DNA of 18,935 bases from positions 1 through 18,935 of the forward strand of contig JAWBRA010000029.1 of the NCBI GenBank assembly GCA_038844785.1, written 5' to 3'. Below the pieces are notes generated by a model, which made no database searches, was not told where the DNA came from, and worked only from the letters and a program-made list of their open reading frames with translations. Of this stretch, positions 1,976 to 8,369 are shown in pieces (position 1 is the stretch's first letter; the number at the start of each line of letters is the position of its first letter). The translations under genes and the position numbers were made by a program. This DNA comes from Candidatus Caldarchaeum sp. GTDB lineage: Archaea > Thermoproteota > Nitrososphaeria_A > Caldarchaeales > Caldarchaeaceae.

Positions 1976-2701
1976 CGTGACGCTCCGTGACGCAAATATA
2001 CCGCGGTTTACAAAACTGTATTCCGGGAAAGGGTTTGAACAAACATATTCCCAACGGCGAAACTTTCGCAGAAATATTCCGTAAAATGGCGGAAGACAAG
2101 CTTTTCCAAGAACTGGTAAAAAGGTCAAGCCTAACCATGAAGCAGGCGGAAACCCTTTTCTTCGACGTGATGTCACACCGTGACGGCTTGATGTTAACTG
2201 CAGAACAGCGTGCCGCGCTACGCGGCGTCACGAAAGGCTCATTCATAAGGACAAAGCAACAAGCGTTGCGCAATATCTCAAAAGCTCTCTTCACCCTCAT
2301 ACTTTTAAGCTATCTCGGTCTTGTCAAACTCCCCGAATACCGGTGGTTTTTCAGGTTGAGCGAAGCTTTTGAGGAGCGGGACTGGGAGGCTGTCAAGGAG
2401 TTTCTCATCTCGCTGGAGGGTTGAGGAGTGGTTTGGAGGCTTTAACAGCCGTCTTCGCCCTTCTTTTCCTGACCCAGACAGCCATTTTCATCTATCTTTA
2501 CAGAAGAGCTGTGACAAACCGTGATGTCACGGTAAAAAGAGAAAATCACACCACATCACAGCAACCAACTCAAAATCCTCAGCCCACATCATACCCAGCG
2601 ACACCCGAGAAAACAAAGGAGCTGCCGACATTAAACGAGTCGGCTTTGGCTGCTCTGAGGCTCATTAGGGAAAGGGGGAGCGTGATATCAAGTGATGTCA
2701 G
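1976..2701. repeat. Dispersed cluster of GTGA(nn)TCAC / CGTGACG motifs, often in 10-bp phase
   Basis: CGTGACGC at 1976 and 1986; GTGATGTCAC 2167-2176; CGTGACG 2179; CGTCACG 2226; GTGAC 2511; ACCGTGA-TG-TCACGGT 2518-2533; ATCACA 2545 and 2555; GTGATATCAA 2682 and GTGATGTCAG 2692. Confidence 0.7.
2035..2424 (+). CDS. Archaeal hypothetical protein, probable HTH-like DNA-binding protein
   Basis: ORF 1987..2424; likely start is TTG 2035 or ATG 2086. Contains SSLTMKQAETL and a helix-turn-helix-like LTAEQRAALRGVTKGSFIRTKQQA, then hydrophobic LFTLILLSYLGLV. The stop overlaps the next start (TTGA). Confidence 0.75.
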   Translation: MNKHIPNGETFAEIFRKMAEDKLFQELVKRSSLTMKQAETLFFDVMSHRDGLMLTAEQRAALRGVTKGSFIRTKQQALRNISKALFTLILLSYLGLVKLPEYRWFFRLSEAFEERDWEAVKEFLISLEG

Positions 2702-2906
2702 CCGAAGCCTGAACCTCAGCAGGGAACATACAGCCCGCCTCATGAAAAACCTCTACGAAATGGGGCTGGCGACCCGATCCGGCAAGCCTTATAAATACAG
2801 CTTAACCGAAAATGGATTATCGATAATTGCTTTAAACGAAACCAAAAACCACGATTCGCCAATGCTTATTAATCATAAGAGCCGATCAAAGTCCTGTCTC
2901 GAATAA
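2421..2906 (+). CDS. Membrane-anchored winged-helix (MarR-like) DNA-binding protein
   Basis: N-terminal transmembrane helix (ALTAVFALLFLTQTAIFIYLYRR), a Q/P/T-rich linker and a C-terminal wHTH (SSDVSRSLNLSREHTARLMKNLYEMGLATRSGKPYKYSLTENG). Confidence 0.85.
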   Translation: MRSGLEALTAVFALLFLTQTAIFIYLYRRAVTNRDVTVKRENHTTSQQPTQNPQPTSYPATPEKTKELPTLNESALAALRLIRERGSVISSDVSRSLNLSREHTARLMKNLYEMGLATRSGKPYKYSLTENGLSIIALNETKNHDSPMLINHKSRSKSCLE

Positions 2907-3193
2907 AGAATGGCTTCTTCCAACTTTTCGGGAGTGGGATTAACACTATAGCCCTTGAGCGTGTAGACAATCAGCCTCTCCCTAGAGTCTGCGAATTTCG
3001 TTAAATCATTTTTTAAACGCTGTTTATCTAAGGGAAGCTCCTGCATTTCTTCAGCGGTGACGGACGATGAGTCGGACCTTCTGATTATATACAGATACAT
3101 TTTGGCAACAAAAAACGTCAGCAGCATCAGGTCCTCGCGCTCAGGAATATTAAACAACAAATATACATCACCTTTAATTGAAACACGAAACAA
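2873..3193 (-). CDS. Hypothetical wHTH-like protein, probably 5'-frameshifted (may extend to ~3277)
   Basis: 106-aa ORF resembling the adjacent pseudogene product (FRVSIKGDVYL...LMLLTFFVAK...VTAEEM). An upstream frame LVIDSQTLRKIYTKYEKII joins it across an A6 run near 3200. Confidence 0.55.
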   Translation of the reverse strand: MFRVSIKGDVYLLFNIPEREDLMLLTFFVAKMYLYIIRRSDSSSVTAEEMQELPLDKQRLKNDLTKFADSRERLIVYTLKGYSVNPTPEKLEEAILYSRQDFDRLL

Positions 3194-3278
3194 TTATTTT
3201 TCATACTTTGTGTAGATTTTTCTGAGTGTCTGGCTGTCTATAACTAGTGTTTGATGTCTGGAGCGTTTGTGCTGCAAC

Positions 3279-3689
3279 TTAACTATAGGTCTCTTTCAGT
3301 GTTTCGAGCCTCTTAGACAGCCTGTTCATCAGACTCTTGATGCCACTTACCGTGATTTCATACACGCCTCTTTCCTTGCGAATTATCTCGCCACGGACGG
3401 CACTTTCCGCGAGGCGTGCTGCTGCAACTTTCTTCGGCAGGTTTGTTTCGGTCACTATTTCTTCAAATCCTACCTCGGCTGTGGGTGTGAGACCTGCAAT
3501 GTTCACCAGCTTTTTCCGTCAGGTAGAGAAGCAGCAGGTCAGTTGAGGTGGCATTAGCTCTGTCGCGCAGACAAAAACTTTTCCATGCTCTGTAATTCGG
3601 AGAAATTCCTTGAAAAACTTCACATCTTCGGGTGTTATTTCCTCTTTTACGACAAGCTCCTTCTTTATCAGTTCTTTGAGCTCATCCAT
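3279..3689 (-). pseudogene. Frameshifted winged-helix protein
   Basis: ATG 3689 gives MDELKELIKKELVVKEEITPEDVKFFKEFLRITEHGKVFV, with an in-frame TGA at 3521-3519. A shifted frame supplies DRANATSTDLLLLYLT, then the original frame resumes KKLVNIAGL...NLPKKVAAARLAE...RGVYEIT (wHTH). This suggests two compensating indels. Confidence 0.65.
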
Positions 3690-3781
3690 CCTAACCTTTT
3701 ACAACCTTTGGTGATTATAAACGTTAGGAGCACAGTTGGGTTCTGGTATGCGGGTTTGTTAATAAGTTGGTTATATAGTGG

Positions 3782-3789
3782 TTTATATT
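3782..3789 (+). promoter_or_regulatory. TATA box of the permease gene (likely leaderless mRNA)
   Basis: TTTATATT begins 32 nt upstream of ATG 3814. Confidence 0.5.
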
Positions 3790-3813
3790 TTGGGTTCTGC
3801 GACGGCTAAGTAT

Positions 3814-5262: not shown

Positions 5263-5297
5263 GTATCAGGGGTGATACGTTGTATCGGGGGTGATAC
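5263..5297. promoter_or_regulatory. Tandem palindromic operator-like sites overlapping the ATPase start
   Basis: GTATCA-GGGG-TGATAC (5263-5278) and GTATCG-GGGG-TGATAC (5282-5297), plus a half-site GTATC at 5241. Confidence 0.65.
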
Positions 5298-6400
5298 TTC
5301 TGCTCTTCGACCCGAGACCCAAAGAGCGGATAGAGGAGCTTTTCGGCAGGGAGGAGGAGGTTAAACTGCTTACGAAGGCGATAGCTACCCCGGTAACGCT
5401 GCTTTTAGGTGTTAGAAGGGTTGGGAAGACATCGCTTTTAAAATCCTTCCTCAACAGCCTAGAAATCCCCTACATATATCTTGACTTGAGGATCTTAGAG
5501 GACTCCGGATACAGCAGGGCGCAGCTGTATCGCTTGCTTTCAGACGCCGTTTCAAACTGCACATCCAAATGGAAGAAAATGCTTGAGTGCTTCAGAGGCG
5601 TAAAAGGTGTCAGCATCTCAGGCTTCAGCGTGGAGTTCGACTGGCGAGAGCAAGCTCTCACCATAACAACCCTCCTGAACAGACTGAACGACTACGCGCT
5701 GAACAGGACGGACAGAGGTTTCATCGTAGCTTCGTTCGACGAGGCACAGCTTCTCAGGTTTCTGGCAGGCGGTAAAGGGAGAATGGATTTTAGAAGCATA
5801 ATGGCTTACGCCTACGACAACCTGAGAGGCCTGAGGTTTATACTTACAGGGTCTGAAGTTGGACTGTTGCTGCATTTTCTAGGACTTGATGACGCTTCAA
5901 GCCCGCTGTATGGGAGATACACCAGCATCGTAAGGGTTGAAAGGTTCTCTAAAGACAGGTCGATAGAGTTCCTGAGCGGCGGCTTCAGAGAAGTTAATAT
6001 GAATGTGAGCGATGACATACTGGAGGCTATCGTGGAGAAGGTTGACGGCATCCCTGGCTGGCTAACCTACTTCGGCTACATGTGTCTCGAATCTGGCGGC
6101 GTATCGAAAGAAGCCATTAAAGCGGTGACGGAAAAGGCGTTAGGGCTTGTTGAAAAGGAACTTGAAAAACTGTTTAAAAGGTCAGTCCTGTACAAGCATG
6201 TGCTCAAAGCCATCTCGATTGGTGAAACATCATGGAGCGGCGTCAAAAGGGCTGTTGAAGCATGGATTGGGAGGAGGCTCACGAACGCGGAGATAACCAG
6301 ATCCCTCAACAATCTGATAAACCTAAGCATTCTGGAAAGAACGGGAGATGAATACAGAATAGCCGACCCGCTAGTAGCTGAATACTGCAGAAAATTCTGA
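5291..6400 (+). CDS. Archaeal AAA+ ATPase (ATPase_2 type) with C-terminal winged helix
   Basis: LFDPRPK...LFGREEE N-terminus, Walker A GVRRVGKT, Walker B SFDEAQ, ILTGSEVG, SPLYGR, DGIPGWL and C-terminal YRIADP. Confidence 0.92.
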   Translation: MILLLFDPRPKERIEELFGREEEVKLLTKAIATPVTLLLGVRRVGKTSLLKSFLNSLEIPYIYLDLRILEDSGYSRAQLYRLLSDAVSNCTSKWKKMLECFRGVKGVSISGFSVEFDWREQALTITTLLNRLNDYALNRTDRGFIVASFDEAQLLRFLAGGKGRMDFRSIMAYAYDNLRGLRFILTGSEVGLLLHFLGLDDASSPLYGRYTSIVRVERFSKDRSIEFLSGGFREVNMNVSDDILEAIVEKVDGIPGWLTYFGYMCLESGGVSKEAIKAVTEKALGLVEKELEKLFKRSVLYKHVLKAISIGETSWSGVKRAVEAWIGRRLTNAEITRSLNNLINLSILERTGDEYRIADPLVAEYCRKF

Positions 6401-6627: not shown

Positions 6628-7659
6628 ATGGAGAGGCTTGTTCACGGTCTTCACCATATCACTCTCGTGGCTTCAAACTACATAGTCAACTACAGGTTTT
6701 ACACAGGGGCTCTCGGCTTGAGACAGGTCAAGCTTTCCGTCAACCAAGACGACATTTTCCACAGGCATGCTTTTTACGCAAACCCCGACAAGCCTACCGG
6801 CAGCGCGATAACCTTTTTCGAATGGCCTGGTCTTCCCCACGGCTATCCTGGGCTGGGTTCTCCACATCATCTGGCTTACCGGGTTAAATCGGTTAAAACG
6901 CTTGCCAAATAGTTTGGCTGGCTTCGGCTAAACGGTGTAAAAGTAAGCGGCCTCCACATCTACGGCGGCCTTGTCTCAATATACTTCCGCGACCCTGACA
7001 ACGCTCTGATCGAGCTGACAACAGTTGACGAAGGCCTTGAGAAAGATTATGTGTGGGAGGTTTTCCAAGATTTAGAAGACGTTAAAGCGGTTGATGCGGA
7101 CATGAAGATAATGTGGTTTGACCATGCTACTCCGCTGGCTATGAACGCAGGTGTTTTGAAACGGTTTTTGGAGAAGTTTCTACAGTTGAAGGAAGCGGAG
7201 GTTGTTGAAGATGATGCTGGCCGTGTCTGGCTCATGGTCAAAAGCGATGAACATGTTTTTCTCCGGTATCTCGTAAACACCTCCGCCGAATATGGCTACG
7301 TGGGCCGAGGCTCAATCCACCACATAGCCTTGGCCGTGGAGTCTGAGGCGGAACAGAGAACGATCTTGCGTAGGCTAGACATGGCTTATGTTAGAAACTC
7401 GGGCATAGTTGATATGTTTTGGCTCCGCTCCCTCTACTTCAGAGATCCGTTCGGGAACTTGATGGAGGTTGCCACCGTAGGGCCCGGATATGATGTTGAC
7501 GAGCCGCGTGAAAGCATGGGAAGCAGGCTTGTTCTCCCGCCTTGGCTCGAGCCCGTTAGAAATATGATTGAAGCACGGCTCGCCGAACAGGACGCTAGGA
7601 ACAATCCTTCATGGCCGCCTGTTTGCGACGAAGTCCCACAGACTCCCGAACCGCTGTAG
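6628..7659 (+). pseudogene. VOC/glyoxalase-family ring-cleaving dioxygenase (MhqO/PcpA-like) interrupted by one in-frame TAG
   Basis: ORFs 6628..6912 and 7051..7659 are in the same frame and the sequence between them is open (FGWLRLNGV...IYFRDPDNALIEL). Motifs GLHHIT, SVNQDD, ITFFEWP, GSIHHIA, SLYFRDP and LVLPPWLE. TAG at 6910-6912. Confidence 0.85.
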
Positions 7660-8245
7660 GCTTGGGAAGTATTATCACACCTTCATCCGGGTTTCCCAGC
7701 TCTTCGCATAACCCCCTCCACCACATGTAGGCAGCAAGGGCGCACGTTACTGCATCGGCTTCATCGCCCGTTATCTTCGTGGACAATCCTTTCACCCCAA
7801 GCTTTCTAAGACCTTTCACGAGTTTGGCGACTCCTTGCTGTTTTCTAGGAAGCCCAAGAACGTCTTGAACGCCGCCGGGATACGTTTCATAGACCTTTAC
7901 ACCCATTTGTCTCAGGACTGCTGCAAGCTTCATTCCACGGGCTGTCAGCATACGCATGGGGCCGATGGTTATCGGGAAAAACTTAATCCTCCTACGTCGA
8001 AGCTCTATGTCGCAGAGCCTAAAATGCGGCGGACCCGGTTCCTCCAAGCTTTCCCTTCCACGGGGCAGGCCGAGGGGTGCGTCAACACCCACTACAGCGG
8101 GCTTCAGCACTTCAACGTCGGCGATTATTTCGTCGTCGGAGAAACGCACCCACGTCCTGCAGCTCATATCCTCATCCAACAAAGCCATTCCCGAAGGTCT
8201 TCTAACGCTGCCGGCTAGGTCAACACCTAAAAATACAACAGCCAT
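7595..8245 (-). CDS. DUF429 family protein (predicted RNase H-fold nuclease)
   Basis: FLGVDLAG, VGVDAPLGLP, R.CD.EL, VYETYPG and DEADAVTCA motifs. ATG at 8245 (ORF track starts at 8251). Confidence 0.85.
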   Translation of the reverse strand: MAVVFLGVDLAGSVRRPSGMALLDEDMSCRTWVRFSDDEIIADVEVLKPAVVGVDAPLGLPRGRESLEEPGPPHFRLCDIELRRRRIKFFPITIGPMRMLTARGMKLAAVLRQMGVKVYETYPGGVQDVLGLPRKQQGVAKLVKGLRKLGVKGLSTKITGDEADAVTCALAAYMWWRGLCEELGNPDEGVIILPKPTAVRESVGLRRKQAAMKDCS

Positions 8246-8369
8246 CCCCAAAACACAGCCTGTAGCAGCAATTAAACATGTGACTCCCTATTAACCAAAA
8301 TATTTAGGGGTATATGTCTCACCGTTTTCTTGGCATGATGTATTACAGGAATTTTTTTGTTCAAGCAGT

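Follow-up and report, generated by a model that had tools for sequence, protein, structure and literature searches.

Why do two small overlapping genes of Candidatus Caldarchaeum sp. (Caldarchaeales) carry, in front of them and within their own coding DNA, a dense array of GTGA/TCAC sites? The array occupies part of an 18,935-bp stretch that is the whole of contig C29 (JAWBRA010000029.1, assembly GCA_038844785.1; hereafter the window), from a genome of 1.74 Mb in 57 contigs with 50% G+C. The first gene (gene 1) is predicted to encode a helix-turn-helix (HTH) protein and the second (gene 2) a winged-helix protein with its own membrane anchor; an earlier note on this DNA had proposed that the pair binds the sites and thereby anchors the locus to the membrane for segregation or cell-cycle control. 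Our analysis bears out a conserved, locus-specific site array that co-occurs with gene 2 and is linked to orc1/cdc6 and a predicted oriC; binding, membrane insertion, tethering and a role in segregation or the cell cycle are what we infer. We assign a probability of about 0.45 to the reading in which the winged-helix protein would bind the array, regulate its own operon and pin an origin-linked locus to the membrane without ParA. The parts of this cassette (gene pair plus array) are, in window positions:

1976-1993, plus strand: upstream tandem pair CGTGACGC-N2-CGTGACGC in a 10-bp register, immediately upstream of the promoter elements; retained at -109/-99 in Caldarchaeum and its relatives within the family.
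1994-2024, plus strand: putative promoter, AAATATA (1994-2000) and a conserved block GGTTTACAAAACTGTATTCC (2005-2024) with the TATA-like TTTACAAAA, from an alignment of 11 upstream regions.
2035-2424, plus strand: gene 1, small all-helical HTH protein resembling sigma-70 region 4 and Tfx (EnfR), by prediction; 129 amino acids from TTG 2035, conserved core from ATG 2086.
2166-2185, no single strand: intragenic sites CGTGATGTCAC and CCGTGACG of gene 1, encoding D-V-M-S-H-R-D-G; codons GAC, GTG, CGT and GGC are the same in 7/7 Caldarchaeum sequences.
2225-2232, minus strand: intragenic half-site GCGTCACG of gene 1 (+140); CGC, GTC and AAA codons invariant in 7/7 sequences.
2421-2906, plus strand: gene 2, predicted membrane-anchored winged-helix protein of 161 amino acids, starting at a TTG that overlaps the gene 1 stop.
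2442-2498, plus strand: DNA for the predicted N-terminal transmembrane helix (residues 8-26), followed by YRR; Kyte-Doolittle 19-residue mean 2.06; conserved into Bathyarchaeota.
2509-2533, no single strand: tandem plus palindrome CTGTGACAAACCGTGATGTCACGGT in gene 2, directly past the transmembrane-helix DNA, encoding A-V-T-N-R-D-V-T; the GTG of the conserved Val is invariant.
2545-2560, minus strand: tandem pair ATCACACCACATCACA in the linker-coding DNA of gene 2; found at +459 on the minus strand in several orthologues.
2637-2804, plus strand: DNA for the winged helix-turn-helix (residues 73-128; recognition helix 101-113 with invariant S-R-E-H..R..K).
2681-2700, plus strand: tandem pair CGTGATATCAAGTGATGTCA within the winged-helix-coding DNA, encoding S-V-I-S-S-D-V-S; GTG the same in 7/7 and TCA in 6/7 sequences.

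A scan of the window finds 14 GTGA/TCAC tetramers between 1977 and 2695; the earlier note had counted at least 11 full or half sites, and all those that it named were recovered at the same coordinates. The palindrome GTGATGTCAC occurs twice at the locus (2167-2176 and 2521-2530), and ACCGTGA-TG-TCACGGT spans 2518-2533. Four pairs are spaced by 10 bp (1977/1987, 2511/2521, 2546/2556 and 2682/2692), the pair at 2546/2556 reading ATCAC and lying on the opposite strand. Altogether the array falls in three reading frames, on both strands and also in non-coding DNA, which argues against chance, a by-product of the encoded peptides or an element acting at the RNA level as its source.

To what extent could one of these trivial sources still account for the counts? 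Over the whole window, GTGANNTCAC is found 2 times against 0.33 expected, which is weak evidence at this level as 8/200 shuffles contain at least 2 copies, and CGTGA is found 30 times against 28.7 expected, with 8 of the 30 falling in 1976-2685. We redrew the codons of both genes with local codon usage in 20,000 draws over 816 bp. The encoded peptides do lift the expected number of half-sites somewhat, to a resampled mean of 3.1 (maximum 9), but 11 are observed; likewise, 3 tandems are observed against a mean of 0.04 and 6 nine-mers against 0.18, and in each case 0/20,000 draws reach the observed count. Because no synonymous draw does so, the peptide-repeat explanation fails, as the earlier note had maintained, and both chance and a peptide repeat were rejected as the source of the array. 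The window matches no Rfam family, and the locus ranks first in the genome, so that we regard a chance, peptide-driven or RNA-level origin as scarcely credible.

The genome-wide ranking comes from 33,893 sliding windows of 750 bp over 1.74 Mb, a count that had been proposed together with the tether and that puts the locus first for CGTGAY: the 8 copies each of CGTGAY and GTGAYG at the locus are the genome maximum (window means 0.45 and 0.68). Four of the five GTGAY-N5-GTGAY tandems and two of the six GTGAYRTCAC palindromes of the genome lie here, and in an unbiased comparison GTCAC, CGTGA and ATCAC rank first among the k-mers of 1976-2906. Plain GTGA, in contrast, reaches or exceeds the density of the locus in 67 windows. 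The densest of these lie in a CRISPR (clustered regularly interspaced short palindromic repeats) array on contig C10 (59800-61400), with a period of ~66-70 bp and a repeat that contains GTGATCCCG.

The same concentration is seen in related genomes. In the 10-20 kb stretches taken from eight of them, the densest 300-bp windows fall at the gene pair in 6/8 and hold as many as 13 half-sites (means 0.5-1.1); in the other two (G094 and G082) the array is weak or lacking. Heptad-spaced tandems at the locus make up 3/5 of all matches in genome G194, 4/7 in G294, 1/5 in G219 and 0/5 in G062. We also considered a genome-wide regulon of the full palindrome and rejected it, the complete genomes G009 and G194 holding 3 sites (1 at the locus) and 6 sites (2 at the locus), compared to 1 and 3 for the reversed control. 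Thus, the array is a single genomic address rather than a regulon.

Is this address maintained by selection? In oriented orthologous loci of the genus and the family, the sites recur in place at -109/-99, +81, +94/+102, +140, +424/+435, ~+459 (minus strand) and from +575 to +606. Among seven Caldarchaeum sequences, whose proteins are 63-88% identical, the motif codons GAC, GTG, CGT, GGC, CGC, GTC and GTG are identical in 7/7, and synonymous positions elsewhere are scrambled. The synonymous-site test that the earlier note had suggested was run with the window's own sequence excluded, on six other Caldarchaeum orthologues and on invariant degenerate codons with the third base in a window site. 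All 5/5 testable motif codons are frozen at this base, with a pairwise codon identity of 1.0 versus a mean of 0.45 for the 89 other columns (Mann-Whitney p = 4e-4). These data support the array as a conserved cis element under selection at the level of DNA.

What kind of protein might read such an array? For gene 2, AlphaFold2 predicts a helix over residues 2-39 (predicted local distance difference test, pLDDT, 82-95 over residues 1-30), a disordered linker at residues 35-67 (pLDDT <50) and a winged helix with the topology H73-85, E87-89, H90-97, H101-113, E117-120, E125-128 (pLDDT >90). The protein scores 30.8 bits with HTH_27 (PF13463), where the cut-off is 22.2 (E 3.5e-7), and 22.9 bits with the MarR profile (PF01047), under its cut-off of 24.6. 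In line with this, Foldseek retrieves MarR-family proteins from E 9e-5. The winged helix also aligns with AspA of pNOB8 (PDB 4rs8, 5k5q) at E 2.9e-4 and a TM-score of 0.72-0.80 on the target, MarR regulators scoring equally well or better. The canonical MarR dimer-interface helices around the winged helix were not found; N-terminally gene 2 has the predicted transmembrane helix and the disordered linker, and C-terminally one helix (130-144). Its invariant residues are concentrated on the recognition helix. One and the same protein is therefore predicted to combine a DNA-binding domain with a membrane-binding element, and the order of transmembrane helix, flexible linker and winged helix put forward from the letters alone agrees with hydropathy, profile match and model.

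The product of gene 1 is a second candidate binder. It matches no Pfam family at E up to 1 (including Sigma70_r4 and TFX_C; PF04545 and relatives) and no NCBIfam family. Its AlphaFold2 model is all-helical (pLDDT 80). Foldseek ranks sigma-70 region 4 domains and EnfR (8hno) highest, albeit as weak matches with probabilities of 0.94-1.0, E-values of 0.09-0.2 and none at or below 0.001; one Atlas lead cluster (score 0.86) carries Sigma70_r4 on 14% of its members. According to PMC10570040, EnfR (TON_1525; PDB 8hno) is an archaeal repressor of the Tfx family whose HTH resembles region 4. The gene 1 model can be aligned with this HTH and the long helix after it (query TM-score 0.50, root-mean-square deviation 2.6 over 70 columns), but its C-terminal part is helical where EnfR has an alpha/beta domain, and it lacks a Sigma70_r4 or TFX_C match. 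The long helix after the HTH (residues 81-99 of the 129-residue form, window ~2275-2331; ISKALFTLILLSYLGLVKL) is strongly hydrophobic (Kyte-Doolittle 1.72) and highly conserved, and could be a dimer core or a surface that associates with the membrane or contacts the gene 2 product.

The distribution of the two genes bears on which of the candidates would bind. Gene 1 is single-copy and present in 56/61 genomes of the Caldarchaeales, and gene 2 starts between -40 and +10 nt from the gene 1 stop in 19/19 loci examined (two families). In families f1 and f4 of the order, gene 2 and the motif are both present. Family f3 has no motif, and a winged-helix gene, divergent and distant, in 1/4 loci; family f2 is discussed below. 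A search of the motif-less f2 and f3 loci for an alternative over-represented 7-mer found nothing in common.

Beyond the order, the gene 1 family comprises 281 clusters at E up to 0.001 in a representative library and occurs in 108/301 genomes sampled from the phylum, with none in several large families (e.g., 0/45 in f5). Named records are from Caldarchaeum, Pelearchaeum, Terraquivivens, HR01, many Bathyarchaeia, and some Thorarchaeota and Promethearchaeota. The earlier note had placed similar pairs in Thaumarchaeota and Bathyarchaeota, which is half right: the pair does occur in Bathyarchaeia, and none of 80 named gene 1 loci is from Nitrosopumilus or Nitrososphaera. Loci of Thorarchaeota and Promethearchaeota (L127, L130 and others) have gene 1 homologues (182 amino acids in L130) but neither gene 2 nor the motif, and no palindrome was found within 700 bp of gene 1 in the Thorarchaeota-titled loci. 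Because these Asgard archaea carry gene 1 without gene 2 or motif, the gene 1 family is wider than the cassette.

Among 137 loci with full flanks, one or more full palindromes occur in 88/99 loci with gene 2 nearby versus 2/38 without it, and at least 6 half-sites per 300 bp in 79/99 versus 3/38; as kin and some duplicates are included, these counts serve for description only. Families f25 and f37 have some motif and no gene 2 within 1.5 kb. In family f10 (L188 and L195 of G094; also L089 and L090), a CBS-domain-like gene with an N-terminal HTH-like stretch, both named by eye, lies between gene 1 and a gene-2-like protein with the recognition helix SKEH; the GTGAY motif is absent, and the locus is 3.1 kb from cdc6.

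As the motif tracks gene 2, and gene 1 occurs without the motif in family f2 and in Thorarchaeota, the simplest reading is that the predicted winged-helix protein is the binder of the array. The alternative that the array is bound by the gene 1 HTH or by a third factor, gene 2 being merely co-regulated, draws on the predicted sigma-70-region-4-like HTH of gene 1 with its nearly invariant recognition-helix region, and on dimers of this HTH class binding short palindromes, as described for EnfR in PMC10570040. However, gene 1 stands without the motif wherever gene 2 is missing (0/15 loci in f2, and the Thorarchaeota loci), and the presence of the motif follows gene 2, which makes this alternative improbable.

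How old is the association? On a complete Bathyarchaeota chromosome (L135), a 400-bp spacer separates gene 1 from the gene for a 231-amino-acid protein made up of a predicted transmembrane helix, a coiled coil and a winged helix, whose recognition helix is almost identical to that of gene 2 in the window. GTGAT/ATCACA half-sites crowd four places there: 5' of gene 1, at the gene 1 stop codon, in mid-spacer and in the 80 bp that precede gene 2. In Bathyarchaeia loci, palindromes recur at ~+428/+431, +597 and -447, counted from where the gene 1 match begins. Half-sites follow the consensus YGTGAYGYC in Caldarchaeum and TGTGATGTCA in Bathyarchaeia-like arrays, and the 10-bp phasing is restricted to Caldarchaeales, with 7 and 11 bp preferred in Bathyarchaeia-like arrays. 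Because the same gene pair and motif are found in Caldarchaeales and Bathyarchaeia, the cassette and its motif appear to be older than the split of the two classes. In Caldarchaeales the spacer has been lost and the sites lie inside coding DNA, at peptide segments unlike those of other lineages, which suggests that the DNA code may have shaped the protein sequence in this order.

Where does the cassette lie on the chromosome? We compared the position of the best Cdc6_C match in relatives with that of gene 1, a check on linkage to oriC that had been part of the original proposal. Outside Caldarchaeales, gene 1 and Cdc6 are 2.5-7.5 kb apart in 25/25 same-contig cases from 10 families among the matches listed; at least 29 genomes have a position, and in 4/29, all with fragmented assemblies, the match is on a different contig from gene 1. 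A tblastn search for Cdc6 in the 80 named gene 1 loci gave no match, flanks of 2 kb being too short to reach it. Four stretches, each from a different family, run gene 1, array, gene 2, small gene and orc1/cdc6, with the gene for the PolD small subunit next in three; in L189, extra genes including HerA stand between gene 2 and the small gene. A 650-730-bp intergenic region lies directly 5' of orc1/cdc6 in two of the four stretches. The intergenic DNA upstream of cdc6 contains inverted repeats of the origin recognition box (ORB) type flanking an AT-rich stretch (CACCCCACTATTTCCAGTGGA and its complement in L186, similar in L191, weaker in L189), and ORB repeats beside orc1/cdc6 mark archaeal origins. 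Thus, in Bathyarchaeia-like genomes the cassette is located beside an ORB-bearing predicted oriC. The small gene, conserved in Bathyarchaeia-like genomes (L186:5177-5596, L191:5505-5930, L189:5533-5937) between gene 2 and the ORB-bearing intergenic region, encodes 135-142 amino acids without a Pfam match and with a C-terminal part that looks winged-helix-like by eye.

In Caldarchaeales the distance is larger, 7-152 kb from cdc6 with a median of 23 kb in 23 same-contig genomes, a requirement that biases these values downward so that only complete or near-complete genomes weigh. In the complete 1.68-Mb genome G009, cassette and cdc6 are 14.6 kb apart with housekeeping genes between them. A LAGLIDADG-domain open reading frame (L190:39-638) lies ~1.3 kb upstream of orc1/cdc6 in this genome. 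In the window's own genome, cdc6 and, upstream of it, two ORB-like palindromes are on contig C54 and the array is on C29.

Proximity to the origin raises the alternative that the array serves replication control, titrating or sequestering a factor at the membrane to time initiation, with no role in segregation, in the manner of bacterial sequestration and titration sites. Its attraction is that in Bathyarchaeia-like genomes the cassette keeps its place next to oriC, orc1/cdc6 and the gene for the PolD small subunit, with the small winged-helix-like gene between gene 2 and oriC as a further point. Against it stand the distances of 7-152 kb from cdc6 in Caldarchaeales, the lack of any link between either protein and Orc1/Cdc6 in our data, and the lack of ORB elements in or near the array: the window has 7 ORB matches with 2 mismatches versus 3.6 expected, which is background, and none is near the array. 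On the same ground, the array itself as an ORB-type origin was rejected; in relatives it lies close to an origin without being one. We consider a role confined to replication timing very improbable.

Several neighbouring genes were noted along the way. Between gene 2 and a cytosine/purine permease gene, ~870 bp (2873-3809) hold small open reading frames without Pfam matches (2873-3193 on the minus strand, 3267-3557 and 3585-3809). In G009 the permease follows ~50 bp after gene 2 (L190:18361), and because of this 2873-3809 looks like an insertion. The frame at 2873-3193 has the same position as the Bathyarchaeia-like small gene, homology not being clear. At 5291-6400 the window encodes a 369-amino-acid protein that combines an archaeal ATPase_2 domain with an MCM_C-like winged helix at its C-terminus, an Orc/Cdc6-like architecture that Pfam does not place in the Cdc6 family. 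A DUF429 gene is found at 7595-8251 (minus strand), 5 kb from the pair, and another at L186:9202-9795 beside the PolD small subunit gene and cdc6; these genes may be another trace of an origin neighbourhood that was once common to both.

Could the array simply be the operator of its own operon? The AAATATA/GGTTTACAAAACTGTATTCC block looks like the promoter of gene 1. The GGTTTACAAAACTGTATTCC element is almost invariant 5' of gene 1 in 11 Caldarchaeales loci and separate from the GTGAY sites; it may be the region of B recognition element (BRE) and TATA box or a second operator. Gene 1 most likely starts at TTG 2035 or ATG 2086 and not at GTG 1987, since orthologues have in-frame stops and homologues are annotated at 129 amino acids; the tandem pair at 1976-1993 is therefore upstream of the promoter, which corrects the earlier note. 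As the start codon is only ~25 nt past the TATA-like element, the mRNA is probably leaderless or nearly so. The gene 1 stop and the gene 2 start overlap in TTGA (2421-2424), which makes the translational coupling claimed in the earlier note plausible.

This arrangement would suit an autoregulator. If autoregulation were all, the sites would be operators by which the pair, a transcription factor sequestered at the membrane with a soluble HTH protein as its partner, governs its own transcription. The membrane anchor would regulate the factor (e.g., by proteolytic release or signal coupling) and play no structural part for the chromosome, and the origin linkage would be inherited synteny. The tandem pair directly upstream of the conserved TATA-like block fits such a role, as do the Bathyarchaeota clusters upstream of gene 1 and just before gene 2, where promoters are expected; moreover, the winged helix is MarR-like, MarR proteins being classic autoregulators, no motor protein is encoded nearby, and the system has been lost in family f2. 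On the other hand, the sole cluster of sites is at the factor's own locus, so that it would regulate nothing else. The sites 400-600 bp inside coding DNA arose after the loss of the spacer and are kept at synonymous positions, for which a promoter-centred role has no need; up to 13 half-sites per 300 bp go beyond a normal operator, and the position beside oriC is deeply conserved across 10 families. Autoregulation as the only function is the main alternative, which we think less likely than the tether.

In the reading that we prefer, autoregulation would be one part of a wider role. The winged-helix protein would bind the sites cooperatively, as dimers on the GTGAYRTCAC palindromes and with neighbours on one face of the DNA at the 10-bp tandems. 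Occupancy of the pair upstream of the TATA-like element would feed back on transcription of the operon, and because the binder would be fixed in the membrane, the bound DNA would be brought to it. A membrane-fixed binder on about a dozen sites could thus pin the locus to the membrane, as a centromere-like tether with no ParA-type motor.

A number of observations weigh against this reading. An operator cluster at the regulator's own gene is also expected under plain autoregulation, and a distance of 5 bp between half-sites is tighter than usual for a MarR-type winged-helix dimer. In family f2 both gene 2 and the motif are absent (0/15 loci), and no gene 2 orthologue was found elsewhere in the f2 genomes G018 and G044; the system is dispensable in this family. 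Family f10 has the gene-2-like protein without the motif, 11/99 gene-2 loci lack the full palindrome, two loci without a nearby gene 2 contain it, and kin loci are not independent, so that the co-occurrence counts overstate the support. The cassette of Caldarchaeales is not adjacent to oriC, the same-contig distances erring on the short side. Finally, Pfam families of nucleoside triphosphatase (NTPase) motors (ParA, ParM, TubZ) were not found in the window genes flanking the pair, in the four Bathyarchaeia-like stretches or in G009; HerA is near in L189 only.

A bolder and more doubtful version of the tether takes the missing motor at face value. In it, the membrane-inserted winged helix would hold new origins at the membrane beside oriC through the YGTGAYRYC array, and growth or division of the membrane would separate the sister chromosomes without a motor. 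This mechanism would be ancestral to Caldarchaeales and Bathyarchaeia, with gene 1 as regulator or adaptor and, in Caldarchaeum, with the centromere inside the coding sequence of its own binder. By analogy, it would represent an archaeal form of the classical replicon model.

How does the cassette compare to known systems? Centromeres double as operators in ParR/parC of R1, the omega heptad arrays of pSM19035 and ParB/parS. As in these and in ParABS-type and type Ib/II systems generally, a repeat array lies beside the genes: short direct and inverted repeats, beside or in the operon of the presumed binder and effectively unique in the replicon, and the 7-bp spacing of the Bathyarchaeia-like arrays recalls the omega heptads. 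In contrast to them, the cassette has no ParA, ParM or TubZ gene, the protein presumed to bind is a winged helix that brings a transmembrane anchor of its own instead of a ribbon-helix-helix or ParB fold, and part of the sites lie within coding DNA. At the palindromic centromere of the Sulfolobus plasmid pNOB8 acts another archaeal winged helix, AspA; its fold is similar to that of the gene 2 DNA-binding domain, but AspA is a soluble protein with ParB and ParA as its partners, and its sequence similarity to gene 2 is not specific. RacA/DivIVA of Bacillus subtilis is a bacterial tether of the origin to the membrane.

Among archaeal chromosomal systems, SegAB of Sulfolobus is similar in that a site-specific protein, SegB, binds a centromeric sequence adjoining its own operon, together with its ParA-like partner SegA; PMC12139799 reports SegB to be absent from Thermoproteota outside Sulfolobaceae. 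The C-terminal signature motif of SegB, as given there, was not seen by eye in either translation, and the cassette has no ParA-like neighbour, so that it differs from SegAB in both respects. RicO of Staphylococcus aureus tethers the origin to the membrane through a C-terminal amphipathic helix, with sites over the origin region, according to a preprint (bioRxiv 10.64898/2026.03.06.710092). Gene 2 differs from it in its predicted N-terminal transmembrane helix, in the single compact array at its own gene and in being archaeal, and the proteins are unrelated. With no motor gene, no SegB motif and no relationship between the proteins, the cassette is not a member of any of these families; by analogy, its closest functional likenesses would be the bacterial origin-membrane tethers RicO and RacA. 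We found no published description of the gene pair or the motif in the main texts of the literature consulted, including a replication phylogenomics paper (PMC3914693).

The locus thus offers a concrete candidate that consists of a short motif, a small soluble DNA-binding domain, a predicted membrane anchor and a fixed place beside a predicted origin in many uncultivated lineages. To our knowledge, chromosome positioning and segregation are not understood in most archaea; SegAB is limited to a few lineages, and we know of no candidate segregation system in Bathyarchaeia and Aigarchaeota. Even if the cassette does nothing but regulate itself, it would represent a protein-binding code that is overlaid on coding sequence and held at synonymous sites, and it would provide a first functional handle on an uncharacterised HTH family that is found in about one third of the sampled Thermoproteota genomes and in some Asgard archaea.

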